From: a virus
Lineage: Duplodnaviria > Caudoviricetes
Length of the DNA: 60,887 bases
Strand: one strand, 5' to 3'
Virus record (IMG/VR): IMGVR_UViG_3300042476_000233
Span: 1 to 60,887 of that record
Shown one piece after another: positions 18,077-35,031 of the stretch (positions within the stretch are counted from its first letter, which is position 1; each line of letters opens with the position of its first letter). Made by a program: the position numbers and the translations under genes. Under the pieces are notes generated by a model. That model did not search any database, was not told where the DNA came from, and worked only from the letters and a program-made list of their open reading frames with translations.

Positions 18077-18257
18077 CTTCGGCTTTCTTTGCAAGGTCAA
18101 GGATGTAACGCTCTGCCATCGCCAGACCTTGGATGACGCCGCAGAGCTTCTGGTATTCCTCAAAAGTGCGACACGAACCCCCCGCCAAGTCATCGGCGTA
18201 GTTGTTCATGTCGGTGCGTATTTGTTCGCGCAATACGCGTGCGAAGTCTTGGATCAT
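18063..18257 (-). CDS. small conserved protein between portal and GroES-like gene
   Basis: 64 aa helical, EEYQKLCGVIQGL. Confidence 0.7.
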   Translation of the reverse strand: MIQDFARVLREQIRTDMNNYADDLAGGSCRTFEEYQKLCGVIQGLAMAERYILDLAKKAEDADE

Positions 18258-20716
18258 TTAGTGGGCGTTTCCCTTCGTCGTTGTTGGGCCTCTTGCGCTT
18301 TGGCCTTTGCGATGTCGATGCCCATGCGGACACCTTCACGTTCTTGTTGCGCGACGAGCATCGCCTTGTCCTTCTCGATGTCAGCCTGCGTTTTCATAGC
18401 GCGAAGCTGCAGGTCACCCTTTACCTTCTCCTGCTCAAGCTCTTGCTTGTCGGCCATCGCCGAGGCGTCGAGCATGATCTTCTGCGCCTTAAGTTTGAGT
18501 TCCTCTTGGCGGAGCATCAGTTCTTGCTGCTGCATCTGGATCACCGGGTCTTGCGCTTGCTGCTGGGCCTGCATCATCGCGGCCTGCTGCTGGCTCTGAG
18601 CCACGACCTGATTCGCCGCCTGCGCCATCATGGTGGACAGCGCGATCTCCACCTGCGGCGGGAGCTTCTCGTCCTCGGGAGGCAGCGGCATGCCCAACTG
18701 CGCTTCGATCTGCTTGCGCATCTTGAAGCCGATGTGCTCAGCGATGTGCGCTTGCAAGGCAGCAGCCAACTGCTGCGCCTGTGGGTTCTGACCCAACTGC
18801 GCGGCGATCATCGGGTCTTGCATCATCATGTTGTGCACGGCGATGTGAGCGTCGTGGTCTTGGTGCAAGAACGCCTTGACGGGCTTGAGCTTGAGGATGT
18901 TCTGGTTCTCGGTGACCGGGTCGATGGGCTTCTGGTCTTCCTCCAGCGGCACGATCTTCTCGGCGTTCTTGATGCCCAGCACCTCCAACATCCCACGGTG
19001 AAGCTCAGGCAGGTTGTAAATCTGCGGAGCCATCTGCGCCATCTGGATGGCGGCTTGGAACTGAACGACGCGCTGCGACAGCGTGGCAGCGTTGGGATCG
19101 CTGACGGGGATGACGTCAACGAGGTCGTAGTCGCTCTGCTTGGCACGCTTCGATCCGTACTCGGGATCGTAGGTGTAGTCCGGGTCCGTGTAGTCGCGGA
19201 TCAGGTTCTTCAGGAGCTTGAACTCCTGCTTGAGCGAGAAGTGCGTACGGGCCTGGACGGCGGTGAGAACTTTGAGTTGGCGTTCGAGCAGGGCCAGCGT
19301 TGTACCCACGGGCGCCTGCGCCGACATGTCGGCCACCTTCATGTCTGCGGTGGCAGCGAAGCGACGGCCTTCCTCGACGATATTCCCGAGCAACTGATAC
19401 AGGACGCCGGACGGCTCCTTGTACGGCAGGGGTAGGATGCTGTCGCGGATGTTGCCACTAGCGACGTCCACGTCGCGGAACTCGCCCGGAGCGATGGGGG
19501 TGTCGTCGCCCTTGATCCGCAGCCCTCGGCTCTTCAAACCTCCGGGGAGATTAGAAAGAGTACCAGCGTCCACCAGTTGCCTCATCAGCGACGTGGCGCT
19601 CTTGGCAAAACCGCCAATCAGGTGGAACAGGCCAAAGCCATACGCCCCGAAGCCGGGGACGTACTGGTAGTGCACGAAGTGCTGGCGCTTGAGTTTGAGT
19701 GCGTCGTCTTCCTGCCAGTTCCGGCGGATCGCCAACACATCGTTCGTGCCCTTGATCATGGTCACGACGTACGGCAGCGCGATCTCGGAGTCTTCTCCTT
19801 CGCCGTATTTGTCTTGCTTGATGTTCAGGTCTACGTGAATCTCGTAGAGCGTGAAGCGATCATCGTTGAGGTCGCGGAAGCCAGTCTCTTTGTCCTTGGC
19901 CTGCTGGATGTCGGTCTTGTTCTTGTCGGGCTCGCCAAGCTCGACGTCCCTATAGAACCCAGCTTCCTGCAGCTTGATGATGTCGTTCTTGGTTTTCCGC
20001 ATGACGTGCGTCAAGCGGTAGCAGGTGTCCATGTCGGTGGCGCCGTACGGCAGGATGATGTCCTCCGCAGGCACGAACATGCTGACCTGTCGGCCCAGGT
20101 TCGGGTCGTAGTACACCTTCTTGAAGGCACTGCCAGTGGCCGGGAGGCTCCACAGCATGCGCTCGTGCTCAGGCCGGAACTCCTTCATGACCTCGGTCAA
20201 CTCGAAGTTCATGTCGTCCTCGACGCGGACAGCGGCCTCTTTCACCTCGGGTGTGTCCTTGCCGATGATCTTGGTTTTCACCGGGCCCTGTGCGGGGAAC
20301 GTCTCGGTGATCATCTCGGACTGGAACTTGACCACGGCCTCCGTGATCATCGGGTGGAACACGCCGCATGCGCCGTTCCACGGCTCTGTCCGCTCTTCGA
20401 TCTGCAAGCCCAACAGCTTCAGGCCATCGACGTATGCCTTCTCCCACTCCTTGCGGGAGCCAACGTCTTGCGTGATGTCGGCAGACAGGTCAGAGCCCAG
20501 CCCTTCGATGAAGGATGAGTCAAGCTCCTCAGCCAAGTTGGCATCGAAGCCGCCGCCTTCGGGTTCTTCTGGGGTGAGGCTGATCTCTAGCCCATCGATG
20601 CCGATGTTGACTTCGTCTGGGTTAACGATCTCGATCTCCAACTCAGGCTCAGCCTGCGCCATCTCTTCCAGACCCACGGGCGCGCCGTACAGCGCCTTGT
20701 CGATGTTCGTTGCCAT
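18254..20716 (-). CDS. portal protein
   Basis: 820 aa after terminase; HPMITEAVVKFQ, GSAFKKVYYD, GFGAYGFGL, Gln-rich C-terminal barrel. Confidence 0.88.
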   Translation of the reverse strand: MATNIDKALYGAPVGLEEMAQAEPELEIEIVNPDEVNIGIDGLEISLTPEEPEGGGFDANLAEELDSSFIEGLGSDLSADITQDVGSRKEWEKAYVDGLKLLGLQIEERTEPWNGACGVFHPMITEAVVKFQSEMITETFPAQGPVKTKIIGKDTPEVKEAAVRVEDDMNFELTEVMKEFRPEHERMLWSLPATGSAFKKVYYDPNLGRQVSMFVPAEDIILPYGATDMDTCYRLTHVMRKTKNDIIKLQEAGFYRDVELGEPDKNKTDIQQAKDKETGFRDLNDDRFTLYEIHVDLNIKQDKYGEGEDSEIALPYVVTMIKGTNDVLAIRRNWQEDDALKLKRQHFVHYQYVPGFGAYGFGLFHLIGGFAKSATSLMRQLVDAGTLSNLPGGLKSRGLRIKGDDTPIAPGEFRDVDVASGNIRDSILPLPYKEPSGVLYQLLGNIVEEGRRFAATADMKVADMSAQAPVGTTLALLERQLKVLTAVQARTHFSLKQEFKLLKNLIRDYTDPDYTYDPEYGSKRAKQSDYDLVDVIPVSDPNAATLSQRVVQFQAAIQMAQMAPQIYNLPELHRGMLEVLGIKNAEKIVPLEEDQKPIDPVTENQNILKLKPVKAFLHQDHDAHIAVHNMMMQDPMIAAQLGQNPQAQQLAAALQAHIAEHIGFKMRKQIEAQLGMPLPPEDEKLPPQVEIALSTMMAQAANQVVAQSQQQAAMMQAQQQAQDPVIQMQQQELMLRQEELKLKAQKIMLDASAMADKQELEQEKVKGDLQLRAMKTQADIEKDKAMLVAQQEREGVRMGIDIAKAKAQEAQQRRRETPTK

Positions 20717-20732: not shown

Positions 20733-22274
20733 TCAGTAGTACGCCGCCTTGCGTGGCGCGAAGTAGCGTTGTTCGTCTTGCTCGTCGGATTCGAGGCTGA
20801 TGAAGCCCCCTTGACGGAAGCGCAGGAGCGCCTGTGTCGTAGTGTCCACGAAGTCGTCGTTCTCGCCTACAGGGAACGCCGCCATCTCCTCGATCACCTC
20901 CCGGGCCCAGCGCGTGTCGGGCGCCCAGACTTTCCCAGAAAAGAACAGGTCAGCCACCGCGTTCATCCGCACCACCTTGTCGTTGCCACGCGACGGTGTG
21001 TACTCAGCCACGGGGATGCCCATATTCCTCAGTTCGTAGATCAGCGGCGCGCCTGCGGCTTTCTTTTCCACGATGAACGCGTCTGGCTCCCACTCCTTGT
21101 AATGCTTGAGCGCGACTTGCTTGAGTTCGGGGAACGCCATCCGGTCTTTGAAGGCATCGAGAAGTATGAGTTGGGGAGAATCCCCTTCCTCTTCGTTGTA
21201 GAACACGCCCCAGGTGGTGCAGGCGCTGAAGTCGGAGGTGGTCTTTGTCTCGAACGCCGTGTCCCAGGACTGGATCACGTACTCGCACCGGGGTGGGTCG
21301 TCTTTTGGCCACATCCGCCAGTGATGCCGCCCCACGATGGCAGACGAGTCTGCCGTAGGCTGCTGCATGTACTGCGCGTTCCAGAACCTGGGGTCAAGGT
21401 TGGCCTTTTTGGACTTGAGTTGGTCCAGTGGCCACTGGTCTGGCCACAGAGATTTCTCTGTGTCGGTGCCTTCGTTCAGGATCGCGGGCAGTTCCACGAT
21501 CTCCCACTGGTCGGCGTCGGGGTTCTTGGTCTGGTAGTCAATGAGACGGCCAGTGAGGTCGAGCAGCGACCACCGCGTCATGATGACGATGATGGCGCCC
21601 CCTGGCATCAAGCGTTGCAGCGGGCCTGTTTGGAACCAGTTCCACGCCGTATCGAAGGCCAGTCTCGAATTTATTTTTACGTCTTGCTCAGAGTGAGGAT
21701 CGTCAATAACAAACAGATCAGCGCCGCGACCAGCCAGAGCACCACCGACACCAGCAGCGTAATACTGGCCTCCCTTGGAGGTTGACCACTTCCCGGCGGC
21801 TTTTTGGTCTTCGGCAACACAGGTTTCGGGGTACAACTCAGCGTATTCGTCGCTGGCGATCAGGTTTCTGATGCGCCGACCAAAGTCTTCGGACAGGCCC
21901 GCCGTGTGCGTGCCCATGATGATCTTCTTCTCTGGGAAGCGCCCCAGAAAGTATGCGGGAAAGAGGTAAGAACTGAACTCGGACTTACCCATACGCGGGG
22001 CGATGTTGATGATCACCCGCTTTTTCTTGCCCGCAAGCACGTCCTCGAAGATGCGCGCCAGCTTTTTGTGGTGTGGGCCCACCTTGAACCCCGGATAGAC
22101 GTGCTTGGCGAACTCAATCAGGCTGGTTTTGGCCAGTTGGCGCGACATCCTGCGCTCGCGCTCTTCGAGCGCCTCAAAAAGCTCGACTTTCTCCTGCAAA
22201 GACAGCGTCGGCAGCGCCGCCTGGAGCGCCGCAAGCTCGCGCGGGGTCAGGCTAGTTAGATTCTGCAGGTTCAT
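20733..22274 (-). CDS. terL: terminase large subunit
   Basis: Walker A APRMGKSE, Walker B FVIDDPH, nuclease SWDTA and DDFVDTTTQAL; start placed at MNLQNL. Confidence 0.95.
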   Translation of the reverse strand: MNLQNLTSLTPRELAALQAALPTLSLQEKVELFEALEERERRMSRQLAKTSLIEFAKHVYPGFKVGPHHKKLARIFEDVLAGKKKRVIINIAPRMGKSEFSSYLFPAYFLGRFPEKKIIMGTHTAGLSEDFGRRIRNLIASDEYAELYPETCVAEDQKAAGKWSTSKGGQYYAAGVGGALAGRGADLFVIDDPHSEQDVKINSRLAFDTAWNWFQTGPLQRLMPGGAIIVIMTRWSLLDLTGRLIDYQTKNPDADQWEIVELPAILNEGTDTEKSLWPDQWPLDQLKSKKANLDPRFWNAQYMQQPTADSSAIVGRHHWRMWPKDDPPRCEYVIQSWDTAFETKTTSDFSACTTWGVFYNEEEGDSPQLILLDAFKDRMAFPELKQVALKHYKEWEPDAFIVEKKAAGAPLIYELRNMGIPVAEYTPSRGNDKVVRMNAVADLFFSGKVWAPDTRWAREVIEEMAAFPVGENDDFVDTTTQALLRFRQGGFISLESDEQDEQRYFAPRKAAYY

Positions 22275-22872
22275 CCGGGGTTTCCGGGGCTTGAGCAGGC
22301 GTGTTTTCGATGTCTTCCACCGGTTCTGCCACATCAATCACGTCCGTGACCTGCATGAAGCGGTTGATCTTGTCCTTTATCTTGGCTTCGATCTCGGCAT
22401 CGGACAGGGTGTTGTTTTTAACTTCGACCCTTTCTGTAAACAACGCCACTTCAGTGACCCGCCCGAGCATGTCGAGCGCCTTCAGCCGGATTTTTGCGTC
22501 GGGGTGCTTGGTTTCCTCAAGGATTTGGCTCACGGCGTAGCCGCGAAGCTCCTTGGCCTGCTCCACAAACTCCCAGTCATAGGCGGTCAGCATCCCCGTC
22601 AGGTGCCGGACGGCAGGCGGGGTCTTCAACTGCATCAGCGCCTTGCGCTGTTCCTCGGGTGTTTGGGTGGTCAGCGCGGAAAACGCTTGCTGCGCCGTTG
22701 AGGCGGCTGCTGATTTCAGGGCGTCGTCCGTGGAGGGGGCGCCCATTTTCTCCAACCAGTCAGCAGTATTTAGCTGAGCGGCGACGATGTCGTCTGGCGT
22801 GGCCTGAGTTAAAGGAACCACGCTCTGCGGCGTAGCCGGTGGAGGGGTGAAATCCAGCAAGTGTTCAAGCAT
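22252..22872 (-). CDS. terminase small subunit (putative); alternative start at 22944
   Basis: Directly upstream of terL; IRLKALDMLGRVTEVALFTERVEV helical motif. Confidence 0.65.
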   Translation of the reverse strand: MLEHLLDFTPPPATPQSVVPLTQATPDDIVAAQLNTADWLEKMGAPSTDDALKSAAASTAQQAFSALTTQTPEEQRKALMQLKTPPAVRHLTGMLTAYDWEFVEQAKELRGYAVSQILEETKHPDAKIRLKALDMLGRVTEVALFTERVEVKNNTLSDAEIEAKIKDKINRFMQVTDVIDVAEPVEDIENTPAQAPETPDEPAESN

Positions 22873-22885
22873 TTCCAAGCGGGGC

Positions 22886-22914
22886 TTGTGACCGAATAGC
22901 GCGGAGTGTATATT
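22886..22914 (+). promoter_or_regulatory. sigma70-like promoter, putative sRNA promoter
   Basis: TTGTGA-17 nt-TATATT. Confidence 0.55.
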
Positions 22915-22920
22915 CGCACC

Positions 22921-23007
22921 CGGCATGTACGCAAGTTGGTTCATGCTTTCTCCTCTCTGTTGCAGGTTGCAACTTCCGCCCCGGCTGAAAAGCGCGGGGC
23001 TTTTTTT
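22921..23007 (+). ncRNA. putative anti-RBS small RNA
   Basis: Bounded by promoter and terminator; contains CATGCTTTCTCCT, the reverse complement of AGGAGAAAGCATG. Confidence 0.45.
22978..23007 (+). terminator. rho-independent terminator
   Basis: GCCCCG...CGGGGC stem followed by T7. Confidence 0.75.
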
Positions 23008-23321
23008 CGCCCGTGTGTGTCAAAGGTTGGACTGTATTTGTGGGAAATTTTTTGGGGTATAGGGGGGTATTTATTTTGAAAATATATGGGGGTGGGGGGT
23101 TATTTGCGGGTTTGAGATGGAGTTTCTGGAAAATGCGGAGTGCGGTTGGGGATTAGTGTTCATGTGACGATGTCGTCGCCGCCTCAATATCGGGGGGTGG
23201 GGGGTAGGTGGGGGTCGAAATACCCCGAAATCGAGTATCCGGCCCGACCCCGCTTAGGGGGGTTGACCCCTTATATGAAGGGGCTCGATTCACAGGGATC
23301 GAGCTAGACCTTCGCAAACCC

Positions 23322-23341
23322 ATTGCGACATTTGTCGCAAT
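23322..23341. promoter_or_regulatory. palindromic operator, copy 1
   Basis: ATTGCGACA-TT-TGTCGCAAT. Confidence 0.75.
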
Positions 23342-23358
23342 CACCCAGGAGAGAAACC

Positions 23359-23784
23359 ATGAGCACAAAGACAATCACCACGATCATCACCGAAGCACTC
23401 GACTCGGTGCATGCCTACGATGCGGCCATCAGTCAGGCCAGGGAACTGCTCAAGGGCAAGGATCGGGACACCATCAAGGTCACGCTGCTGCCCATCGTGG
23501 CCGCGTACCCCAAGTACGCTGTGCCCATCGTGGACGGCGAAGGCAAGGCCAAAGGCAAGAAGGTGATGGACGGCAAGCATGCCAAGTACAAGACGGCAAG
23601 CAAGGCCCTGGAGCGACTCATCGACGACATCATGGGCAAGACGAGCAACAAGGCCGAGCAGTACGAAATCCCCGAGGAGCTTCTCGCTGCTGCGGTGACC
23701 CTGGTCAAGCGCGCCCGTGGCTACGACGAAAAGGTCATGCGCACCCTGGCCGCTCAAGCCCTGGCCCATGCTTGGACGCTGTGA
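23359..23784 (+). CDS. early hypothetical protein
   Basis: AGGAGAGAAACC-ATG; first gene of plus-strand module. Confidence 0.8.
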   Translation: MSTKTITTIITEALDSVHAYDAAISQARELLKGKDRDTIKVTLLPIVAAYPKYAVPIVDGEGKAKGKKVMDGKHAKYKTASKALERLIDDIMGKTSNKAEQYEIPEELLAAAVTLVKRARGYDEKVMRTLAAQALAHAWTL

Positions 23785-23804
23785 TTGCGACAAGTGTCGC
23801 AATC
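23783..23804. promoter_or_regulatory. palindromic operator, copy 2
   Basis: GATTGCGACA-AG-TGTCGCAATC. Confidence 0.75.
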
Positions 23805-23888
23805 GAATTTTCCTGGCGCAACCCCGAACGCGAGGGGGGTTGCGTTATTCCGACCCTTTCCTCGCCGCTTTTGACACTGGAGGATTCC

Positions 23889-24080
23889 ATGCAAACCATT
23901 CCCCTTCGCCGCGTCAAGCCCGGAGACTTCATCAAGCGCAAGCCTGAAGCCAAAACCGTCTACCGCAGGGGCGACTATGACCGGGCCACCAAGACCTACA
24001 CCCTGGTGGACACCGACGACATCAGCCGCGCCATCTATCTCAAAGCCACCACGCTCGTGGTGGTCGGCTTCACCTACTGA
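23889..24080 (+). CDS. small early protein
   Basis: GGAGG RBS; MQTIPLRRVKPGDFIKRK...VVVGFTY. Confidence 0.75.
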   Translation: MQTIPLRRVKPGDFIKRKPEAKTVYRRGDYDRATKTYTLVDTDDISRAIYLKATTLVVVGFTY

Positions 24081-24090
24081 GGAGTGAACC

Positions 24091-24261
24091 ATGCTTGAAC
24101 TCAAGCAAACCATAGGCAAGGCCGCGCTGTACCGGCGCGAAACCTACAACCACCGAACCACGCCGCTCATCGAGTGGATCGTCAAGGTGGGCGACCGCAC
24201 CGTACGCGAGTGCTCCACCCGCAAGGAAGCACTGACTTGGCTCAACATCTACAAGGACTAG
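24091..24261 (+). CDS. small early protein (56 aa, below ORF-track cutoff)
   Basis: GAGGAG RBS; MLELKQTIGK...WLNIYKD read by hand. Confidence 0.65.
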   Translation: MLELKQTIGKAALYRRETYNHRTTPLIEWIVKVGDRTVRECSTRKEALTWLNIYKD

Positions 24262-24264
24262 ACC

Positions 24265-24438
24265 ATGCCCCACACCAACCGCCACCAACAGCGTGCCCTG
24301 CGCGGCATGCACCCAAACCCCAAGGCCAAGGAGGAACTCAACAGGATCAGGGAACGCCTAATCCGCGAGATCGAGGAGCGCGAAGGCAAGGAGGAGATCA
24401 AGTACTGGGAGCGCAGGACTTGGCTGCGCACCCCTTGA
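24265..24438 (+). CDS. small early protein (57 aa)
   Basis: MPHTNRHQQR...RTWLRTP read by hand; coupled to upstream gene. Confidence 0.6.
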   Translation: MPHTNRHQQRALRGMHPNPKAKEELNRIRERLIREIEEREGKEEIKYWERRTWLRTP

Positions 24439-24458
24439 TTGCGACATTTGTCGCAATC
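24437..24458. promoter_or_regulatory. palindromic operator, copy 3
   Basis: GATTGCGACA-TT-TGTCGCAATC. Confidence 0.75.
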
Positions 24459-24515
24459 GCCGCCTTTGTCGCCCGACCCTGGGATCGGGCGACATTTTGT
24501 AAGGTTCCTGGTACT

Positions 24516-24800
24516 TGGCCGGGGTGCGAGCAACCGTGGACGCACAAGTGGGTAGCGTAAGTCCTTGATTTGCAAAAACATACACACTACTACTACCACC
24601 TAACCTTTATTTATATATATGTAGTGGTAGGTAAATATTTATGTGTATGTGTGTGACTTCCTTCTGTCCTTCCTTTCCTCCTTTCCCTTTGCTACACTTT
24701 CTGCGCCGAGGGTAGGGTGGTAGTCAACCCCCTTTTCCCTATGCAAATCAACAACTTGCTCTACCCACTTTTGCGTCCACGGTTGCTCGTACCCGGGCCA
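24516..24800. repeat. 59-bp inverted repeat around an AT-rich core; probable replication origin
   Basis: 24516-24574 vs 24742-24800, 52/59 identical by hand alignment; IHF-like WATCAANNNNTTR in each arm. Confidence 0.7.
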
Positions 24801-24835
24801 TTTCCTGTGAAACTACCACCAAACAAGGGTAAACC

Positions 24836-25486
24836 ATGACCTCTGAGATCGACCTTTCCCCCGTCTTCAAGCGGTGTTTGTACTGCGGCAACGAGTACCC
24901 GATCCGCTTCTTCCGACGTTGGCACATGATGAAGTTCCGCGTGATGCCCACCTGCAGTGGCTGCACACCGGCCAAGACACTCAAGCAGATGACCCCGGCG
25001 GAGCGCAAGCGGGCGCTCGAAACATCCCACCGCACCCACTCGGTTGCGTTCATCAATGAGATGAACCAGCGCGAGAAGGATCACAACTACAACAGCAAGC
25101 TCGCCGACCTGCAGTACACGAGGCATGCCCGCAAGCGGCGGGCGAACTGGCGCTTGGCCATCCTTGAGCAGGCGTACACCGAGGTGCGGTGGGCCAGGGC
25201 TGCGCTTGCTCGGTATGGCAAGGCTGTCGAAGGCAGGCCCGAACGAAAACCCTACATCGAGTTTTTCGAGGAGTACATCAAGGTATTGGAAAGCCTTATT
25301 GAATCCGCTGAAGTACGCGCCAATGAAATGGGCGCCCCATTAAAACCAACCGCCGAGGAGAGTAACCCGATTACTTATATCGACCCGTTGATTTTTAGTT
25401 ATTTGAAGGAGTTGTACAACAAATGCCCGGTAATACCGGGAACACGCGCACCACGCGACCCGTGGATTCTGTATTGGAAGAAGTAA
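24836..25486 (+). CDS. Zn-finger hypothetical protein
   Basis: CLYC...CSGC followed by helical region. Confidence 0.7.
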   Translation: MTSEIDLSPVFKRCLYCGNEYPIRFFRRWHMMKFRVMPTCSGCTPAKTLKQMTPAERKRALETSHRTHSVAFINEMNQREKDHNYNSKLADLQYTRHARKRRANWRLAILEQAYTEVRWARAALARYGKAVEGRPERKPYIEFFEEYIKVLESLIESAEVRANEMGAPLKPTAEESNPITYIDPLIFSYLKELYNKCPVIPGTRAPRDPWILYWKK

Positions 25487-25489
25487 AAC

Positions 25490-25511
25490 GATTGCGACAA
25501 ATGTCGCAATC
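25490..25511. promoter_or_regulatory. palindromic operator, copy 4
   Basis: GATTGCGACA-AA-TGTCGCAATC. Confidence 0.75.
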
Positions 25512-25533
25512 ACAACCAACGAAGGAGAAAGCC

Positions 25534-25740
25534 ATGACCAAACCTGAAACCAACTACACCTTTTGGATCGAGACAACCACCGGTGAGGAAACCTACTGGG
25601 ACAGGCTGACCAAGCGCCAAGCCGAGGCGATGTACAACGCCACCCAAAAGAGCGTGCCCGTCAACCTCAAGCGTTGGGGGTGGGGCGCAGTCGAGGAGTT
25701 GAAGCTGGGATATCTGCCGCTGACGGGAGAGACAGCATGA
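25534..25740 (+). CDS. small early protein
   Basis: AAGGAGAAAGCC-ATG. Confidence 0.75.
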   Translation: MTKPETNYTFWIETTTGEETYWDRLTKRQAEAMYNATQKSVPVNLKRWGWGAVEELKLGYLPLTGETA

Positions 25741-25919
25741 AGGTACGAGACTGGGAGTGCGGGTGTGGCCACGCGTGGACTGCCCCGGTAGTGCTCGCCA
25801 AGCACACGCCCAACCTGTCGGGTGAGGCCACGCAGTGGTGTCCTCGGTGTGGCCAGCGCCCAGTGATGGGCTCGCCTGTGAGAGAAGTTCAACCAACCGA
25901 AGAAGGAGAAAGCAAATGA
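25737..25919 (+). CDS. small Zn-ribbon protein
   Basis: ATGA overlap; CGCG...CPRC. Confidence 0.65.
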   Translation: MKVRDWECGCGHAWTAPVVLAKHTPNLSGEATQWCPRCGQRPVMGSPVREVQPTEEGESK

Positions 25920-26557
25920 AGATCAGTGTGACGAGCAAGCTCGACGGCATCAAGTCGTGGTCGCTTGAGGCGTTGGATACGTGTCCTGGTTCGATTGGTT
26001 CTGATGGCGCGCTTGTCCCCGCCTGCAGCGGGTGCTACGCCACAACGGGGAGATACCTCACACCTTCGGTCAAACAACCAAGACAACATAATCGCGAAGA
26101 CTGGCGCCGTCCCGCGTGGACCACGGACATGGTGGCTGCGCTGCAGGGTGAGCGGTTCTTCCGATGGTTCGACAGCGGCGACATGTACGCGCTGCCGCTG
26201 GCCAAGAAAATCCTGGCGGTGATGCGCCAGACGCCCGACACCAAGCACTGGCTACCCACCCGGATGGCGAAGTTCCCGAAGTTCGAGGCGGTGTTGAGTG
26301 AGATGCGGGCGCTTCCTAACGTGGCCGTTCGTTTCTCTTCCGACTCGGTGTCGGGGGACTTCACCCCTGGCGTGCACGGCAGCACGATAGCGCCGTCGGG
26401 GGTAAAGCCCAAACACACCTTCATCTGCGGCGCCTACAACCGCGAAGGCAAGTGCGACGGGTGCCGCGCCTGTTGGGACAAGTCCATCAACGTCATCACC
26501 TACCCCGCACACGGCAGGAAGATGGCCAAGGTCATTCAGATTTCCGGGTCACGGTGA
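25916..26557 (+). CDS. gp88-family protein
   Basis: TSKL..SWSL..CPGS...CSGCYA, FRWFDSGD, HWLPTR, C-terminal CDGCRACW. Confidence 0.8.
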   Translation: MKISVTSKLDGIKSWSLEALDTCPGSIGSDGALVPACSGCYATTGRYLTPSVKQPRQHNREDWRRPAWTTDMVAALQGERFFRWFDSGDMYALPLAKKILAVMRQTPDTKHWLPTRMAKFPKFEAVLSEMRALPNVAVRFSSDSVSGDFTPGVHGSTIAPSGVKPKHTFICGAYNREGKCDGCRACWDKSINVITYPAHGRKMAKVIQISGSR

Positions 26558-26613
26558 CCCGGTTTTGTCGGGGCTTCGGCCCCTTGTTTAACTGCAACTA
26601 GGAGAAACCAACC

Positions 26614-27135
26614 ATGAACAAGATTCAAGCAGCACAACGCAACGCCACCATCAATGCTCATCAGAGCGCCATGCGGGTCGAGCTTGCTCGCCACCCCGAG
26701 GTCAAGAAGATCCTCGCCATGTTCCCCCCTGCCCTGCGCAAGGAGGTGCGCTTCAGCGTCAGTGACTACAGCGACAGCGCCACCTTCATCCTGCGCCTGA
26801 TCGGCCTGGAGTCCTTCAAGGACAAGCAACTGGTCAAGCTGCTCGCCAAGTTCGCAGGGGATGAGTGGGCGTCGCAGACTTCTGACTATGCCAACAGCGA
26901 CACGCCCAATCGGGACTTCAGCTTCAACCGCGAGATCCCCTGGACGCCCAAGCCGAGCAAGCACACGCGTTGGATTGAGAAGAACTGCGGCGCGTACCAC
27001 ATCCCCACCACCTTCAAGATCAGCGTCATGCTGTTCACCTACGTGAAGAGCGACTCGCCGACCTGCCGCATAGTGGTCGAGGGCTACGAGGAAGAAGTCG
27101 TGCGCAAGGAGATCAAGAAGATCGTCTGCGCCTGA
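26614..27135 (+). CDS. hypothetical protein
   Basis: AGGAGAAACCAACC-ATG; 173 aa. Confidence 0.8.
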   Translation: MNKIQAAQRNATINAHQSAMRVELARHPEVKKILAMFPPALRKEVRFSVSDYSDSATFILRLIGLESFKDKQLVKLLAKFAGDEWASQTSDYANSDTPNRDFSFNREIPWTPKPSKHTRWIEKNCGAYHIPTTFKISVMLFTYVKSDSPTCRIVVEGYEEEVVRKEIKKIVCA

Positions 27136-27201
27136 TGAGTGGGGGGCTTCGGCCCCCTTGTTTGGGGACACATGTCCCCGTTTGACTAGGAGAAACCAAC
27201 C

Positions 27202-27420
27202 ATGAACCGTTTCATATTGATCGTTGGCGACGCCGCCACCTACGAGGAGGACGGCGAGCACCACGCCGACTTCCAACGTATTGACTTCATCAAGACCTTC
27301 TTCACATTCGAGGAAGCCGAAGCACGTGGTGAATGGGCCATTACGCATGGCCACGACACGTATGCCATCGCGCAGAACTTGTGCAACGTAGTGACCTACA
27401 ACCCCAAGCAAGGAGAGTAA
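27202..27420 (+). CDS. hypothetical protein
   Basis: Same leader as the 26614 gene. Confidence 0.75.
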   Translation: MNRFILIVGDAATYEEDGEHHADFQRIDFIKTFFTFEEAEARGEWAITHGHDTYAIAQNLCNVVTYNPKQGE

Positions 27421-27422
27421 CC

Positions 27423-27575
27423 ATGAAAGTGAAAGACCTGATCGAAGCACTGAAGAACCTGCCGCCTGAGTGTGATGTGTACCTGTGGTGGCAAGGCACA
27501 CGCCTGCCCGTGACCGAAGTCGATACTGACTTCGTCGAGGAGCAGTTCATTGACCTGATGATTACGGAGGACTGA
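27423..27575 (+). CDS. small hypothetical protein
   Basis: MKVKDLIEALKNLPP with AGGAG RBS. Confidence 0.7.
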   Translation: MKVKDLIEALKNLPPECDVYLWWQGTRLPVTEVDTDFVEEQFIDLMITED

Positions 27576-27578
27576 ACC

Positions 27579-27851
27579 ATGAAGCTAGTCAAGCACCCCC
27601 AACCCACCTTCCACTTCCTGCTCACATCCGTGTTCCGGTGGCACACGAGCGAAGACCTGCACGAAGCCATGAAGTACATGGACAAGCAGAAGGAAACCTA
27701 CTGGGTGTGGTACGTGCCGTGTGAGAAGAGCGCGGCGTACGACATCGAGTGGTATCGCCCTCAAGTCGAGGGCAGTTTCGTCCTGGCCCAGGTCGAGTTC
27801 GACAAGCGTGGTCGGGTGGTTAAGCACAAGGAAGAGGAGGCAACAGCGTGA
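27579..27851 (+). CDS. hypothetical protein
   Basis: GGAGG RBS, tightly packed. Confidence 0.7.
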   Translation: MKLVKHPQPTFHFLLTSVFRWHTSEDLHEAMKYMDKQKETYWVWYVPCEKSAAYDIEWYRPQVEGSFVLAQVEFDKRGRVVKHKEEEATA

Positions 27852-28066
27852 AAGACAACCTCGAATACATCCGGCGCAAGCCCAAGACCGACGACGACCA
27901 CCTGCATGCAGCGCACCTGATGCGCACGGGTGGGAGTTTCGCCAAGCACATCGCCGAGGCGTACATGTGCGCAGACCGCAGCAACAAGGAGCGACTCAAG
28001 GCTGCGTTCCCTGACCTGTTCACGCGCTTCTACGACGAGTACTTCCGTAGTACGCACGGCATTTGA
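27848..28066 (+). CDS. hypothetical protein
   Basis: GTGA overlap; GGSFAKHIAEAY..AD..NKERLKAAFP. Confidence 0.7.
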   Translation: MKDNLEYIRRKPKTDDDHLHAAHLMRTGGSFAKHIAEAYMCADRSNKERLKAAFPDLFTRFYDEYFRSTHGI

Positions 28067-28134
28067 GATCGGGGACGCCTGTCCCCATCCGTGGCCACTG
28101 CGGTTCAGTGGCACATCAACTAGGAGAAAGCAAC

Positions 28135-28488
28135 ATGAATGAAACCAACAACCCTATCCTCAACGCTATCCTGGCTGCACTCAACGAGCACATCGACGCG
28201 CGGATCAAGGCGGCACTGGAGGCGCAGCCCAAGCCGGAGACGAACGTCACCGTAGACATGGACGCCCTGCGTGAACTGGTCACCCCACTGGTGGGCAGCA
28301 TGGTCGAGGCCAAGATCGAGGAAGCCATCAACGCCCACTGCGAGGAGTACGACCATGACCGCTACGACAACATCGCCAACGAGGTGGACGACCTGCCCGA
28401 CTTCGATGACTTCGTGAGGGGCGATGAGTTGGATAGCAACGTGCGGGACGCAGTGCGCGACCTGTCCTTCGAGGTCAGCGTCAGCTAA
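28135..28488 (+). CDS. acidic helical protein
   Basis: AGGAGAAAGCAAC-ATG. Confidence 0.75.
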   Translation: MNETNNPILNAILAALNEHIDARIKAALEAQPKPETNVTVDMDALRELVTPLVGSMVEAKIEEAINAHCEEYDHDRYDNIANEVDDLPDFDDFVRGDELDSNVRDAVRDLSFEVSVS

Positions 28489-28499
28489 GGAGAAAGCAA

Positions 28500-28715
28500 A
28501 TGACCAACGGAGTAACCAAAGACTTCATCGACTCACTCACTGCGAACGAGCGCACCGACCTGCTTGCGGGACTCACGAACCTGCATCTGAAGCGCACCGC
28601 AAGCGACGCGCTGATGGCGTCGAGCCTGCTCACGCACTACCTCAGGGCGCTAGGCATGAACGAAGAGGCGGAGTACATGGCCAACCTTCAGCACCGCTTG
28701 TTCGACCTGACCTGA
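28500..28715 (+). CDS. hypothetical protein
   Basis: AAGGAGAAAGCAA-ATG. Confidence 0.7.
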   Translation: MTNGVTKDFIDSLTANERTDLLAGLTNLHLKRTASDALMASSLLTHYLRALGMNEEAEYMANLQHRLFDLT

Positions 28716-28826
28716 AATTTTTTTCACCCAACCCTTCCCACAACCGTGGGAAGGGGTTACACTGTCCACTTCTGGACAACCGTAGCCGCTGCGGATCAGC
28801 GGCAATCTCAACTAGGAGAAAGCAAC

Positions 28827-29801
28827 ATGGCTCATCAAATCATGATCAAAAACAACGTCGCTCAATACGCAAGTACGCAGAGGGAATGGCACGGCCTGGG
28901 GCAACTGATGCTGCCCGGTCAGTCCATTGAGAAATGGCAAGAGGAAGCCGGTATGAACTATGAAGTGCAGCGCGGTTATGTTCGCTACGCCACCGAGCGT
29001 GGCCAGTCGGCTGACGCCATGAAGGTAGTGAAGGACAAGGTGGTGCTGTTCCGCAGCGACACCAAGGATGCCCTGGGCGTGGTGTCTGATTCCTACAAGG
29101 TGGTGCAGCCCCGTGAGGTGCTGGAGTTCTTCCGCGACTGGGCCACGGCAGGTGGCATGACGATTGAAAGTGCGGGGGTCTTGTTTGGTGGCAAGCGGTA
29201 CTTCGCCACAGCGAAGATGGCAGCGGGGGTTTGTGTTGACGGGTACTCCGACAGGATCGTGCCCTACGCTCTCCTGTCTACCTCCGCCGATGGCTCCCTG
29301 GCCACCGAGGCACGGTGGACTACCGTCCGGGTTGTGTGCAACAACACCCTGAGCATGGCACGCGAGGGCAAGGCAGCAGTGCGGGTGACGCACCGTAGTG
29401 AGTTCAAGCCTGAAGATGTGCGCGATGTGTTGGAGAACGCCAACGCTGAGTTCCATGCCTTCATGGAGATGAGCCGCCAACTGGCGGGCATCAAGGTCGC
29501 ACGCCCCTTGGCAGAAGACCTGACTATGCACCTCTTCAAGACCGGCACAACCAAGGACGCCGACAAGGTCAAGGAGTCGCGTGGCTTCATTCGCGTGATG
29601 GAGTTGTTCAACGGCGCAGCCAAGGGCGCGATGCTTGAGACAGCGCAGGAAACTGCATGGGGTTGGCTCAACGCGGTCACCGAGTACGCTGACCACCACA
29701 TCCGCGCTCACTCGGATGAGAACCGCACCGCCTCTGCTCTGTGGGGCCAGGGCGACACGCTCAAGAACCGCGCAGTTGAGTTGGCTCTGGCTGCAGCGTG
29801 A
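28827..29801 (+). CDS. DUF932 / TIGR03299-type phage-plasmid protein
   Basis: MAHQI...WHGLG, LGVVSDSYKVVQP, TTVRVVCNNTL, TAWGWLNAVTEYADH. Confidence 0.88.
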   Translation: MAHQIMIKNNVAQYASTQREWHGLGQLMLPGQSIEKWQEEAGMNYEVQRGYVRYATERGQSADAMKVVKDKVVLFRSDTKDALGVVSDSYKVVQPREVLEFFRDWATAGGMTIESAGVLFGGKRYFATAKMAAGVCVDGYSDRIVPYALLSTSADGSLATEARWTTVRVVCNNTLSMAREGKAAVRVTHRSEFKPEDVRDVLENANAEFHAFMEMSRQLAGIKVARPLAEDLTMHLFKTGTTKDADKVKESRGFIRVMELFNGAAKGAMLETAQETAWGWLNAVTEYADHHIRAHSDENRTASALWGQGDTLKNRAVELALAAA

Positions 29802-29902
29802 AGACCGTCTCTTTCACTATCAACATCTCTTCTTCCGAGGGCTTGCGCCCTCGGTTGCTTCTGTCTAAACTTGGACTTCCCACAACCACAAAGGAGAAAG
29901 CA

Positions 29903-30292
29903 ATGACCGAAACCGTAACAACCCCAACCAAGATTAACAAGGCGGAACTCATCCGCACCCTGCTCAAAGACAAAACCAAATCCAAGAGCGACATCGCCGA
30001 GGAGGTCGGCTGCAAAGTGCAGTACGTCTTCAGCGTGCAGAACCATGACCGGGTGAGGGCCAGGAAAGCCAGGGCCAAGCGCAAGCTGGAGCGTCAGGCA
30101 GAACTGCGCAACGGCGCGCCCAAGCGCAAGTACACCAAGAGCGGAAAGTATGCGAAGCAGGTTCCCGCGCCCACCACGCCGATGGTGGAGCCGGTTGTGA
30201 AGACGCAGTACATCGAGATCGAGGTACCGCAGCCGCACTACAACCTGACATGGCGTCAGCGTTTCACTGCGCTGTTTTTCGGGAGGGTCTGA
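29903..30292 (+). CDS. HTH-containing protein
   Basis: SKSDIAEEVGCKVQYV helix-turn-helix; AAGGAGAAAGC RBS. Confidence 0.7.
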   Translation: MTETVTTPTKINKAELIRTLLKDKTKSKSDIAEEVGCKVQYVFSVQNHDRVRARKARAKRKLERQAELRNGAPKRKYTKSGKYAKQVPAPTTPMVEPVVKTQYIEIEVPQPHYNLTWRQRFTALFFGRV

Positions 30293-30294
30293 GC

Positions 30295-30489
30295 ATGAAG
30301 TTCTACGAGATCGAACTCAGGCGCGAGTCCTACATCACCGTTGTCGTCAGCGGCACCTCTGCGGAAGAAGCAGCGGAAAAGCTCCTCAACAACTTGGAGG
30401 AGTACGTCGATGGCGACCCCGATGAAGCCGACTGGGACATCACCGATATCAACGAAGCGGAAAGAACCGAGGAGGACAGAGCAGAATGA
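30295..30489 (+). CDS. small acidic protein
   Basis: MKFYEIELRRESYITVVV..SAEEA. Confidence 0.7.
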   Translation: MKFYEIELRRESYITVVVSGTSAEEAAEKLLNNLEEYVDGDPDEADWDITDINEAERTEEDRAE

Positions 30490-30647
30490 AAACACGCGCA
30501 TTGAAACTGGTACGTGAGTTGTTCGCCGTGGACTATGTGCCGCTGCACACGCAGCGCCACAACCAACGGCAGTGGGTCAAGAGCGTTCGTCAACTGGGTG
30601 ACCGATGGCTACTCGCAAAACCACTCGACCTGCCCAAGAAGCACTAG
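30486..30647 (+). CDS. small hypothetical protein (53 aa)
   Basis: ATGA overlap; MKTRALKLVR...LGDRWLLAK read by hand. Confidence 0.6.
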   Translation: MKTRALKLVRELFAVDYVPLHTQRHNQRQWVKSVRQLGDRWLLAKPLDLPKKH

Positions 30648-30766
30648 ACCCACCACCCAAGGTCTGGCCCTTCCCAACGTGGAAGGGCCGACCGTACAAG
30701 CAACCAAAACAACAAAAACCCGATCCGGTGGCGGGACTACCACCAGCACTGTTCTAGGAGAAAGCA

Positions 30767-31423
30767 ATGATCAAAGAAGAAACCTGCATCATCAGCCCGC
30801 CGAAGTTCGGCGTCACCGACTTCTACATCGAGGGCGCTGCGCCCCTGGTGGTGGAGCGGTTCAGCAAGAAGGCTGAACTCATGGCCAAGATGGCCGAGGG
30901 CCAGTCAGCCAAGAACAAGAAGGCCCGCGACGCACGGGACTACGACAAGGAAGCCGAAGAGGCGCGCTATCGCAGCATCGATGGGTGGGAGGGCATGAAC
31001 GCCGCCGCGTTCCGTGCCGCCATGATCAGCGCCTGCCGACTCGTGGGGTTCAAGATGACGCTGGCCAAGTTGTCTGCGTTCATCGAGGCCGATGGGTTCG
31101 ACAAGAACGATGGCGTCCCCCTCGTGCGCATCTACGGCGAGAGTCAGGTTTACACGGCGCATACTCGTAACGCTACGGGTGTGGTCGATGTGCGTTCCCG
31201 TCCCATGTATCGCAACTGGGCCGCGCGTCTGCGTGTCCGGTACGACATGGATCAGTTCAAGATGGCCGATGTCTTGAACCTTGTCTCCCGGTGTGGGATG
31301 CAAGTGGGTATCGGTGCAGGCCGTCCCGACAGCAAGGCTTCTGCCGGATGCGGGTTCGGTCTGTTCAACGTAGTCCCGAGTGATCGGGAGAAGGAAGTGG
31401 TCGCCAAGTACGGCATCCAATAA
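30767..31423 (+). CDS. solo RAMP/Cas7-like RNA-binding protein (candidate guide-RNA effector)
   Basis: N-terminal strand FYIEGAAPLVV, helix AAAFRAAMISA, C-terminal Gly-rich loop VGIGAGRPDSKASAGCGFGLF; stop codon abuts the pentamer array. Confidence 0.7.
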   Translation: MIKEETCIISPPKFGVTDFYIEGAAPLVVERFSKKAELMAKMAEGQSAKNKKARDARDYDKEAEEARYRSIDGWEGMNAAAFRAAMISACRLVGFKMTLAKLSAFIEADGFDKNDGVPLVRIYGESQVYTAHTRNATGVVDVRSRPMYRNWAARLRVRYDMDQFKMADVLNLVSRCGMQVGIGAGRPDSKASAGCGFGLFNVVPSDREKEVVAKYGIQ

Positions 31424-31942
31424 GGCAGGCTAGGCTCGTCTTGGTATCGACAGGCCCGTCCCGGTTAGGCAGGTTCGGCTCGTCCTGGCTAGGCGCGGTG
31501 CAGTACGGTTCAGCAAGGCAGGCGGGGCTAGGCGCGAATAGGCGCGTTTCGGCAGCGCGTGGCGAGGCAAGGCAGGTGCGTCAAGGCGGCGCGGGGCTTG
31601 GATCGACCCGGACAGGCAAGGCAGGTCTGGCGTGGACAGGCGGGTTCGGGCGAGGCACGGTTGGGTACGGCAAGGCAGGCGGGGCTGGGCTAGTCTAGTT
31701 CTGGTAGGGCAGAGCATGTTTCGGCAAGGCAGGCTTGGCAGGGCTCGGAGCGGCAGCGTCGGGCTAGGTATGGCACATCACGGCAGGCAAGGCTAGGCGG
31801 GTTCCAGTGCGGTCAGGTAAGGCTAGGCGAGGCAGGTCAGGAAAGGCCCGGCTTGGACGGGCGAGGTGCGGCGAAGCGAGGCAACGCACGGCAGGTAAGG
31901 CAAGGAAAGGCATCGCAGGGCCGGGCGCGGTGTGGTACCGCA
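31424..31942 (+). repeat. non-coding GGY-NN pentamer array, ten units (candidate guide-RNA array)
   Basis: Units start with GGCA at 31424, 31468, 31517, 31571, 31620, 31674, 31728, 31782, 31831 and 31890, each followed by 8-11 in-phase pentamers. Confidence 0.9.
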
Positions 31943-31968
31943 GGCATTTAACTTTTTAAGGAGAAAGC

Positions 31969-32424
31969 ATGAAAGAGGAACGGAAACTTTTGACTGACAT
32001 GGCACGGCGCAACGGCGGCGTGCTCAAGGTAGAGGACGTGATCGCTGAGGCAAGCAGTGCCGACAGCATCCTGCACAAACACTTTGAGTGGGACGACACG
32101 AAGGCTGCTGAGAACTACCGCAGGGAGCAGGCACGCTCGCTGATTCAGCGGTGCAAGATCACGCTGGTGGAGGGCGAGCCCGTATCCGTGCGGGCGTTCG
32201 TCAGTCTGCCGACTGATCGAGAGAGTGGCGGAGGCTACCGCCTCACGTCGGAGGTCATAAGCAACGAATCCCAGAAGGAGGAACTGCTGCGCGACATCCA
32301 GTTGACCATCGCCCGCTGGTCGCAGAAGCTGCACCTGCTCGATCAGGACATCGCTGAACTGCTCGAAGAGGTGGATAACCGAATCAATAGTAAACAGGCA
32401 GACGCTACGCGGGTAGCGGCCTGA
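31969..32424 (+). CDS. array-associated accessory protein
   Basis: NGGVLKVEDVIAEA...LHKHFEWDDTKAAENYRREQARSLI; AAGGAGAAAGC RBS right after the array. Confidence 0.8.
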   Translation: MKEERKLLTDMARRNGGVLKVEDVIAEASSADSILHKHFEWDDTKAAENYRREQARSLIQRCKITLVEGEPVSVRAFVSLPTDRESGGGYRLTSEVISNESQKEELLRDIQLTIARWSQKLHLLDQDIAELLEEVDNRINSKQADATRVAA

Positions 32425-32441
32425 ACCCATAGGAGCAAACC

Positions 32442-32567
32442 ATGCAGAGACTCAACGAAGATGACGGACTCGACGAACTGGGCTGGCTCGCCGCCATGCT
32501 GGGCGCCCTTGGCTTCCTGTTCTTCGCCCTGGTGTACTTCCTGCACTGGGCGGGGTGGCTTACATGA
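32442..32567 (+). CDS. small membrane protein (41 aa)
   Basis: AGGAG RBS; one hydrophobic helix. Confidence 0.6.
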   Translation: MQRLNEDDGLDELGWLAAMLGALGFLFFALVYFLHWAGWLT

Positions 32568-32683
32568 AATGGCTTGGTGAATTCATCGTCCTGTACTGGC
32601 TGATCACCGTCTTGGTCGTGGTGTTCCTCGCCCCGTTCGTGACGCTGATGATGTTGATCAGTTATTTGTGGGGGTTGGTATGA
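32564..32683 (+). CDS. small membrane protein (39 aa)
   Basis: ATGA overlaps at both ends; almost entirely hydrophobic. Confidence 0.55.
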   Translation: MKWLGEFIVLYWLITVLVVVFLAPFVTLMMLISYLWGLV

Positions 32684-33090
32684 GTGAAGCGTTGAGATTG
32701 GCTGAATTGATTGACAACGACCTGAAGAAATCCGCGCATCACGAAGAAGCCGCTGCTGAACTGCGCCGCCTTCATGCGGAGAACAAACGCCTGGAGACGC
32801 TCTGCTACGACTACCTTGGTGAACTGACAGCCATGCGTGCAGTGGAGCACATGCGAAAGCAGACCTTCATGGCTGAGTACAAGTTCCGCACTTACGGCTA
32901 CTACCAAGACGCCGACGGCAAGATGCAGGTGGGCGAGATACCGGAAGAGATGTTGACCGTGAGCGTAGAGGAGTTGATTGAGAAGGCTGTACTGGCCGAA
33001 CGTGAGGCGTGTGCGGAGTTGATTGAAGACATGGCTGTGCAGCACCCGAAGTACATCGCCGCCGCCATCAGAGCAAGGGGGCGGGAATGA
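32680..33090 (+). CDS. hypothetical protein
   Basis: EAAAELRRLHAEN and AEREACA...AAAIRARG motifs. Confidence 0.75.
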   Translation: MSEALRLAELIDNDLKKSAHHEEAAAELRRLHAENKRLETLCYDYLGELTAMRAVEHMRKQTFMAEYKFRTYGYYQDADGKMQVGEIPEEMLTVSVEELIEKAVLAEREACAELIEDMAVQHPKYIAAAIRARGRE

Positions 33091-35023: not shown

Positions 35024-35031
35024 GGAGAAGC

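Follow-up and report, generated by a model that had tools for sequence, protein, structure and literature searches.

The virus record IMGVR_UViG_3300042476_000233 of IMG/VR is a genome of 60,887 bp, about 95% complete, and its whole length constitutes the window analyzed in this work. The virion and packaging genes are located on the minus strand, from position 1 to 22944, and the early and replication genes on the plus strand, from 23359 to 44552. The element studied here (22886-23007) heads the leftward packaging operon and adjoins a divergent intergenic region of 415 bp; it has the features of a small RNA (sRNA) gene whose predicted product, read from the plus strand, contains the complement of a ribosome-binding site (RBS) that is repeated in front of a group of early genes. 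The coordinates of the features are given in Table 1.

Table 1. Features of the sRNA locus, its neighbours and its candidate targets (positions in the 60,887-bp window; ORF, open reading frame; SD, Shine-Dalgarno sequence)
Feature	Position	Strand	Details
Portal	18254-20716	−	
TerL	20733-22337	−	PHROG 38, E = 5e-102
TerS-like ORF (open frame)	22252-22944	−	directly upstream of TerL
terS-like gene from Met25	22252-22872	−	ATG at 22944 would add 24 residues
P_sRNA promoter	22886-22914	+	−35 TTGTGA 22886-22891, 17-nt spacer, −10 TATATT 22909-22914
Putative terS (late) promoter	22905-22934	−	−35 TTGCGT 22934-22929, 18-nt spacer, −10 TACACT 22910-22905
Predicted small RNA	22921-23007	+	about 87 nt; start placed from the −10, within about 3 nt
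Stem-loop 1	22922-22947	+	GGCAUG of the 5' end paired to CAUGCU, the anti-start/spacer segment
Anti-RBS 15-mer TTCATGCTTTCTCCT	22940-22954	+	
Single-stranded linker UUCUCCUCUCU	22948-22958	+	anti-SD seed
Stem-loop 2 (GUUGCA/UGCAAC)	22959-22973	+	predicted fold
Intrinsic terminator	22978-23007	+	stem 22978-23000, then T7 at 23001-23007
Palindrome TGTCAAAGGTTGGAC	23018-23032	+	directly after the sRNA terminator
Candidate target starts, AGGAGAAAGC	25523, 25904, 28122, 28488, 28814, 29892, 30756, 31959, 34186, 37013, 38241, 39858, 40258	+	0-3 nt before ATG
2820-aa ORF	44711-53173	−	C-terminal LPD38 'large polyvalent protein' domain

The original prediction, made from the DNA letters of the window, had placed here a promoter and a terminator enclosing about 87 nt with no useful ORF, and within them the complement of the shared RBS; all of these were recovered. 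The promoter, P_sRNA, has 9 of 12 consensus matches in the promoter scan. The terminator is a bulged GC hairpin (GCCCCGGC/GC(G)CGGGGC) followed by a run of T; with a free energy (dG) of −22.9 it is the strongest intrinsic-terminator-like site across the whole window, and a first terminator scan had passed over it owing to the bulge. The RNA delimited by these signals is predicted to fold with a minimum free energy of −32.8 kcal/mol (z = −2.98). The plus-strand ORFs that extend over the element (22906-23079 and 22925-23062) read through the terminator and their starts are absent in the relatives described below, the ATG at 22925 being missing from most of them; the predicted sRNA appears to be non-coding, without a conserved ORF. 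A search of the region 22000-24500 with the Rfam covariance models, on both strands and up to E = 1, gave no family that reaches its threshold; the best match was RF02837 anti-hemB, with 19.7 bits (E = 0.16), the gathering score of this family being 49.5.

A search of viral contigs with the TerS protein gave 194 related stretches, and the best 80 of these (52-94% identity) were retained; 74 sequences (73 loci plus the window) contain at least 170 nt upstream of terS and collapse into 61 unique ones, which are the basis of all the counts out of 61 given in this work. A promoter-like site of the form TTNNNN-16/18-NANNNT lies in the same register in 59 of them (the exceptions are L041 and L076), and the information content, obtained from 33 non-redundant sequences anchored on the −10, peaks at the TTG of the −35 region and at the block AGTGTA.A.T and falls on either side. 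The unit is closed in all 61 sequences by a GC-rich hairpin followed by at least five T (dG −16.3 to −25.9), the stem sequences differing completely between clades; as a base rate, a comparable hairpin accompanies 40 of the 946 runs (4.2%) of at least five T in the 11 genomes compared further on. Also present in all 61 is the hexamer UCUCCU, with a mean unpaired probability of 0.94 (minimum 0.62) vs 0.36 for the remaining RNA. In 55 of the 61 this hexamer has one hairpin on its 5' side and two on its 3' side, with sequences that vary by clade, and the position of stem-loop 2 likewise holds a hairpin, of unrelated sequence, in 55. The predicted RNAs of the relatives have 73-130 nt and the same architecture, and the fold z-scores of 20 non-redundant members, calculated against dinucleotide shuffles, range from −1.66 to −5.82, with 18 of them below −2. 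As read from the folds, the pairs of stem-loop 1 change in step by clade: GGCAUG/CAUGCU in the clade of the window, and GGUAGUG/CAUUGCU, GGUAAGUG/CAUUUGCU and GUAGUGCC/GGCAUUGC in others.

A promoter and a Rho-independent terminator of its own, both conserved, are what would be expected of an independent bacterial-type sRNA gene, and we consider it very probable that such a gene exists at this locus. On these features we regard the predicted sRNA as a new conserved phage family that is not in Rfam, and the lineage that carries its gene is one of uncultured, mostly freshwater phages. A more distant locus (L117, 48% TerS identity), from a contig of a metagenome-assembled genome (MAG) labelled Lysinibacter, keeps the promoter −10, the block GCAAGCAGTTGC and a terminator formed by a hairpin and T9; in this locus CCCUUC replaces UCUCCU upstream of terS.

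The sequence AGGAGAAAGC, to which the predicted RNA is complementary, is found in the window at 20 sites with at most one mismatch, vs 3.75 ± 2.08 expected, and none of 100 shuffles reaches 20. Its exact copies number 14: 13 are on the plus strand and one is on the minus strand, at 22945-22954, inside the element. The claim that the motif precedes at least 13 early or replication genes was borne out by these 13 plus-strand copies, which span 25523-40267; the ATGs behind them open ORFs of 68-522 aa, among which are those encoding SNF2 helicase, DUF932, GP88-like, SprT-like and Gp157/Pam3 gp33-like proteins. Contiguous complementarity to the sRNA of at least 9 nt (actual values, 11-15 nt) was observed for 12 of the 48 early ORFs of the strand-restricted gene list, the gene caller having missed the 13th tagged gene (25534). 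On the late strand none of about 35 ORFs has such complementarity, once an artefact ORF of the sRNA locus itself is set aside. The SDs of the late genes read AGGAG followed by T or C and none of these genes has the tag, in agreement with the claim that the virion genes use other RBS sequences. Strand-restricted gene calls and lists of translation initiation regions (TIRs) filtered by the presence of an SD were used in these counts; a six-frame caller was too noisy on this GC-rich DNA. The predicted seed:TIR duplexes have a median dG of −23.4 kcal/mol for the tagged early genes (n = 13), −17.6 kcal/mol for other early genes (n = 20) and −10.8 kcal/mol for the late genes (n = 28), and control duplexes formed with the reversed seed gave about −10 to −12 kcal/mol in all classes.

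The first early genes (23359-25486) and many other early genes are devoid of the tag. From the original proposal of a single sRNA directed against the whole early/middle regulon, the sRNA with a complement to the shared RBS stands, being conserved in 55 to 61 of the 61 relatives, but the extent of the regulon was overstated, given that only 13 genes are tagged. The roles proposed for the sRNA, as a late switch or in superinfection control, are conjectural. The first early genes (23359-27848) have instead of the AAAGC tag another spacer in common, ..AACCATG, as in AGGAGAGAAACCATG and in two occurrences of TAGGAGAAACCAACCATG; the early strand seems to contain two RBS classes. A conserved single-stranded seed complementary to several SD regions is the distinctive trait of the anti-SD sRNAs, and the predicted RNA presents it with regard to 13 TIRs, over 10-15 nt.

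Eleven genomes, that is, the window (G000) and ten related records, two of them fragments (G009 and G010), were compared by counting on the early strand (that of the sRNA) and on the late strand the SD-bearing TIRs that have at least 9 nt complementary to the seed of the same genome. The counts, early and late respectively, were 11 and 1 in the window, where the late one is the locus itself, 9 and 0 in G001, 6 and 1 in G002, 15 and 3 in G003, 9 and 0 in G004, and 8 and 0 in G007; in the fragments they were 2 and 1 (G009) and 0 and 0 (G010). In 4 of the 11 genomes the commonest SD-containing 10-mer of the early strand is a 10/10 complement of the genome's own seed, and the four words are different: AGGAGAAAGC in the window, ATCAGGAGAA in G001, GGAGAAGCAA in G002 and AGGAGAAACA in G007. 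In G003 eight AAGGAGAAAGCAAATG sites pair with the seed of that genome over 15-16 bp with one bulged base, and in G004 the dominant RBS matches the seed over 8 nt. No late strand in any of the 11 genomes has an enriched RBS word. The co-variation between seed and RBS thus appears to be real but partial, and we take it as supportive rather than decisive.

A different origin of the motif was contemplated in the original prediction, namely that it is simply the RBS of a minus-strand terS ORF starting at 22944. The minus-strand AGGAGA, which is the mirror of the seed, is present in 61/61 relatives. No start codon follows this SD within 3-10 nt in 12 of them; in the 49 that have a start codon, 32 open an ORF of 2-29 codons and 17 have a frame open into terS. 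This last proportion (17/49) is close to the one-third expected by chance if the frame were arbitrary, and therefore the SD is not a conserved RBS of terS. In the clade of the window, the interval that separates Met25 from the upstream ATG has a 1-nt deletion in three independent contigs (L018-L020) and an in-frame TAG in two others (L022 and L023); in 10 loci the ORF of the TerS homologue opens at the equivalent of Met25, right after a stop codon and with its own SD. As no conserved ORF follows the SD across the 61 relatives and the frame is interrupted within the clade, this alternative did not hold, and terS most likely starts at 22872 (Met25). This particular phage may nevertheless start at 22944, the SD before Met25 being weak in the clade of the window (TTGGAAATG).

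The strongest form of that alternative would be that no plus-strand RNA is made, the motif serving only for the translation of terS from 22944, as its RBS and start, the hairpin a stabilizer of the 5' end of the late mRNA, and the promoter match a product of chance. The frame 22252-22944 is indeed open and has a perfect RBS, the promoter match in the window is at the level expected by chance, and no plus-strand RNA is seen in assembled contigs from RNA libraries, in which RNAs of about 90 nt are not expected to be kept. Nevertheless, we find this explanation very unlikely: an A-run always precedes the hairpin in the terS orientation (61/61), and therefore the terminator serves the opposite strand; the promoter is kept in 59/61; the terS frame is broken or absent after the motif in most clades; and in the ten relatives mentioned above a stop codon immediately precedes the start of terS at the Met25 equivalent.

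The same leader could be the target of the RNA in cis. In this case the sRNA would pair with the leftward late leader and restrain the late genes, either by blocking the upstream SD and AUG or by triggering RNase III, in the style of sar/ant of P22 or RNA-OUT/RNA-IN of IS10; the blocked unit would be a leader ORF, or the N-terminal extension of TerS in the clade of the window. Complementarity to any minus-strand transcript is perfect by construction, a start codon follows the SD in 49 of the 61 relatives with the frame into terS in 17, the weak SD before Met25 in this clade (TTGGAAATG) leaves room for use of the ATG at 22944, and in L039 a minus-strand gene ends at the hairpin, which places the element of some genomes within reach of leftward transcription. 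Still, a conserved putative minus-strand promoter (TTGCNN-18-TACACT) lies downstream of the element, and the terS mRNA is predicted to begin near 22898, outside the sRNA; in the window there is no minus-strand promoter-like site in the 420 nt upstream; 12 of the 61 relatives lack a start codon after the SD, and the lengths of the ORFs are not conserved. Antisense action in cis would also leave unexplained why the minus strand has a copy of the tag of the early genes, which is absent from all other late genes, and we consider it unlikely.

The putative promoter of terS, which resembles a weak promoter of the sigma-70 type, has 7 of 12 consensus matches (hand count), with a −35 whose conserved form is TTGC(A/G)N, and transcription is predicted to start near 22898. 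Conservation in the region is highest at AGTGTA, which is TACACT on the minus strand; GCAAG, which contains the TTGC of the minus-strand −35, is conserved as well. The −10 of this promoter overlaps by 2 bp the −10 of the sRNA promoter, so that both are placed back to back; given the overlap of the hexamers, polymerase probably occupies one promoter at a time, and the two would be mutually exclusive. The body of terS is covered by contigs of three RNA-library studies, which stop at 22871, 22873 and 22885, not more than 15 nt away from Met25, with no loose ends on that side; the stops (22871-22885) are a weak hint of the 5' boundary of the terS mRNA, and could equally represent an assembly break.

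The overlap of the two −10 hexamers could also indicate that what matters is the promoter and the terminator, the RNA product being irrelevant. The divergent promoter would occlude the terS promoter and set the timing of the late genes, and the strong terminator would merely insulate the neighbouring early promoter from this transcription. The terminator is located directly upstream of a consensus early promoter, and in six relatives (L039, L046, L060, L068, L070 and L080) extra DNA is found between the sRNA terminator and the early promoter, therefore the sRNA unit stays with the terS promoter where DNA has been inserted. However, a promoter and insulator device would leave unexplained the invariant unpaired UCUCCU, the three-hairpin layout and the match between the flanks of the seed and the RBS tag, and it seems to us improbable.

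The reading that we favour, and for which we see an even chance, is repression in trans: the sRNA would pair with the tagged RBSs of the middle and replication mRNAs and shut down their translation. From the features described above we infer that the RNA is made, and propose for its action the following course. A sigma-70-like promoter of the host type would start the RNA near 22921, and the intrinsic terminator would end it at 23007. The fold of the RNA would comprise, from the 5' end, a stem-loop, the exposed linker rich in C and U (UUCUCCUCUCU), a small second hairpin and the terminator hairpin. The exposed UCUCCU would pair first with the SD AGGAG(A) of the mRNAs tagged with AGGAGAAAGC(N0-3)AUG, the targets being the 13 middle/replication genes located between 25.5 and 40.3 kb, and pairing would then spread into the 3' arm of stem-loop 1 (CAUGC) and open it, giving 10-15 bp over the SD, the spacer and the start codon. 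This duplex would keep the 30S subunits off and block translation initiation of the tagged set. Through the overlapping promoters, the synthesis of the sRNA would be coupled to the late packaging operon, and hence to the early/late decision. It is possible, although we propose it only tentatively, that a private extended RBS tag on the middle/replication genes and one sRNA that mimics the ribosomal anti-SD, together with the choice made by the polymerase, at the palindrome-like 10-bp block AGTGTAYACT, between the sRNA and the packaging genes, form an RNA-based early-to-late switch.

Several observations weigh against trans repression of the tagged genes. The window promoter taken alone is at chance level, with 1 promoter-like site in 3 kb vs 0.8 from shuffles; the case therefore rests on the relatives. 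Contigs from RNA libraries cover terS and none covers 22886-23400, a result that is uninformative given that these are assembled contigs in which RNAs of about 90 nt are not expected to be kept; in this check 12 runs were listed, none of which had half of the sampled words, and the 4 that were examined were all assembled contigs. RNAalifold on a MAFFT alignment returned 0 consensus pairs, with hairpins of unequal length out of register, and a second alignment of the sRNAs of the relatives was likewise out of register; because this alignment-based covariation test failed, the evidence for a conserved structure comes from sequences folded independently, one at a time. Stem-loop 1 ties up part of the anti-RBS (CAUGC), and a CU-rich strand pairs with any purine-rich RBS. 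A constitutive promoter of the host type would make the repressor alongside its targets, and thus an extra assumption, such as slow accumulation, is needed. With respect to the co-variation between anti-SD and dominant RBS that the original prediction had proposed to look for in related phages, it is incomplete: exact in 4 of the 11 genomes, near in 3 (G003, G004 and G006, the seed of the latter being one base off its dominant RBS) and absent or uninformative in 4. Few matches were found in G005 (1 early, 1 late) and G008 (2 early, 0 late), and none on either strand in G006. In addition, the genomes are related, and shared ancestry inflates the agreement.

The low counts of G005, G006 and G008, in which the extended seed matches few TIRs of the same genome, would fit an RNA that acts in trans with another aim, such as the host mRNAs with AGGAGA-type SDs (host shut-off), or that serves as a decoy for Hfq, ProQ, CsrA-like proteins, S1 or a nuclease; the match to the RBS tag of the phage would be a by-product of the resemblance of both to a strong SD. 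In favour of this idea, only UCUCCU is invariant, and this hexamer resembles the 16S anti-SD; in the distant L117, where promoter, GCAAGCAGTTGC block and terminator are all retained, UCUCCU is replaced by CCCUUC. Against it, the flanks of the seed track the tag of the same genome exactly in 4 genomes and nearly in 2-3, where a host target predicts otherwise, and the bias to the early strand holds in 6 genomes. We view such an aim as rather unlikely, and return to repression of the tagged phage genes in comparing the element with known systems.

In IS10, RNA-OUT and RNA-IN are expressed from interlocked promoters that face each other, and their transcripts overlap by about 35 nt. With this and other antisense systems of overlapping promoters the element would share a small stable RNA, a promoter interlocked with that of the neighbouring gene and a complement of an SD and AUG, but its putative promoters point away from each other, back to back, and no overlap of the transcripts would be expected. 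The C-rich-loop sRNAs of Firmicutes (RsaE, RNAIII) are similar to the anti-SD type. In phage T4, RegA is a translational repressor protein that acts on early mRNAs at or near the SD, while later genes escape; the endoribonuclease RegB inactivates early mRNAs through the SD signature GGAG, according to the part of the report dealing with this signature (PMC1702504). Both are functional analogues, in that a set of early mRNAs is recognized by a signature in or near the SD; in contrast with these proteins, the recognizer would here be an RNA and the tag has 10 nt, and there is no homology. The sRNAs c4 (P1, P7) and sar (P22) block translation by pairing around the RBS, and in the section that a recent review devotes to them their function depends, as we propose here, on exposed complementary segments of a folded RNA (PMC12197685). 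Each of them, as presented in that section, controls one operon (ant) in a temperate immunity region, whereas the element described here lies beside the terminase promoter and would act on about 13 unrelated replication genes (PMC12197685). No sequence or Rfam relationship with c4 or sar was found. The cuckoo/CcsR anti-SD sRNAs are chromosomal RNAs of Alphaproteobacteria that, in the portion of the article that describes the family, have CCUCCUCCC repeated in the loops of 2-4 hairpins; an unpaired pyrimidine-rich anti-SD motif that is fixed, stems that are variable, and many targets reached by SD pairing are common to them and to the element (PMC4615179). As far as that description goes, the element is not a member, given that its UCUCCU occurs once and in an inter-hairpin linker instead of CCUCCUCCC in the loops of 2-4 hairpins; it is also phage-encoded, and its pairing with genes of the phage itself would reach their spacer and start codon (PMC4615179).

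By analogy, the closest systems in mechanism would be c4/sar and the anti-SD sRNAs (cuckoo), and the closest in biological logic T4 RegB and RegA. The element belongs to none of the systems compared, since its motif, the placement of this motif in a linker, the tag present on many genes and the position next to terS are different. A 2016 study of phage PAK_P3 states that only a few sRNAs of virulent phages had been described, and in the relevant part of that paper its own sRNAs are tRNA-loop-like and single-gene matches, for which reason they were rejected as an anti-RBS precedent (PMC4933390). The review of 2025 describes, in the part concerned, single-target antisense RNAs such as c4 (PMC12197685). 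A literature search restricted to open-access papers gave no phage sRNA with a seed matching an RBS tag common to a block of the phage's own genes.

With regard to the neighbouring genes, the TerS-like ORF has a weak profile match to PHROG 51, the terminase small subunit (E = 0.005), and a Pfam search of this ORF matched no terminase family; its profile match and its position upstream of terL are those of a terminase small subunit, as which we provisionally classify it. The genes of the early strand include those for a family A DNA polymerase, an SNF2 helicase and a DUF927 primase-helicase. Twenty early proteins were compared with Pfam, and none matched an integrase, a repressor or an RNA chaperone. 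Further minus-strand genes lie beyond 44552, among them the one for the 2820-aa LPD38 protein; this ORF was considered as a virion RNA polymerase of the N4 type, with N4-like hairpin promoters, and rejected on account of its identity as an LPD38 protein. When cultured relatives were looked for among phage records, the DNA gave only 5 weak TerL matches and the TerS protein gave none. Among genome contigs there were only two matches, both in MAG contigs (labelled Limnohabitans and Lysinibacter) that are too short for calling lysogeny or a host; one of them holds the sRNA module and the other, that labelled Lysinibacter, a variant without UCUCCU.

Downstream of the sRNA terminator, the right half of the palindrome (TGTCAAAGGTTTGACA; in the form TGTCAAAGGTT(T/G)GACA) supplies the −35 of the relatives' main early promoter, which reads TTGACA-18-TATAAT with 12/12 matches in L022 and L034 and 11/12 in L016 and L077; the corresponding −10 of the window looks degenerate. 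The palindrome is present in three tandem copies in L066 and in three spaced copies in L069. The insert of L068, just downstream of the sRNA terminator, resembles an opposite-strand tRNA gene, and that of L039 is a minus-strand ORF that ends at the hairpin. In the intergenic region between terS and the early genes there are G-rich boxes, ATAT(A/C)GGGGG(G)TGGGGGG, at 23088-23101 and 23192-23215, found at a similar relative position in many relatives, and a block GATTAGTGTTCA (ACAGTGTTCAT in other clades), at about 23146-23160, is conserved in the long early leader of distant relatives. Within the initial 2 kb of the early region, an inverted repeat, ATTGCGACA-N3-TGTCGCAAT, occurs in four copies (23323-23343, 23785-23805, 24439-24459 and 25492-25512), and every copy lies shortly before the RBS of an early gene; these repeats could be operators, processing sites or weak terminators.

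Few sRNAs of virulent or uncultured phages have a known role. If repression of the tagged genes by the predicted sRNA is true, a whole class of genes would be timed post-transcriptionally by an RNA of about 90 nt, and the oddly uniform RBS of 10 nt found on only some of the genes would be explained. The tag and the sRNA would then represent a compact and portable translational off-switch, an RNA counterpart of RegA and RegB of T4.

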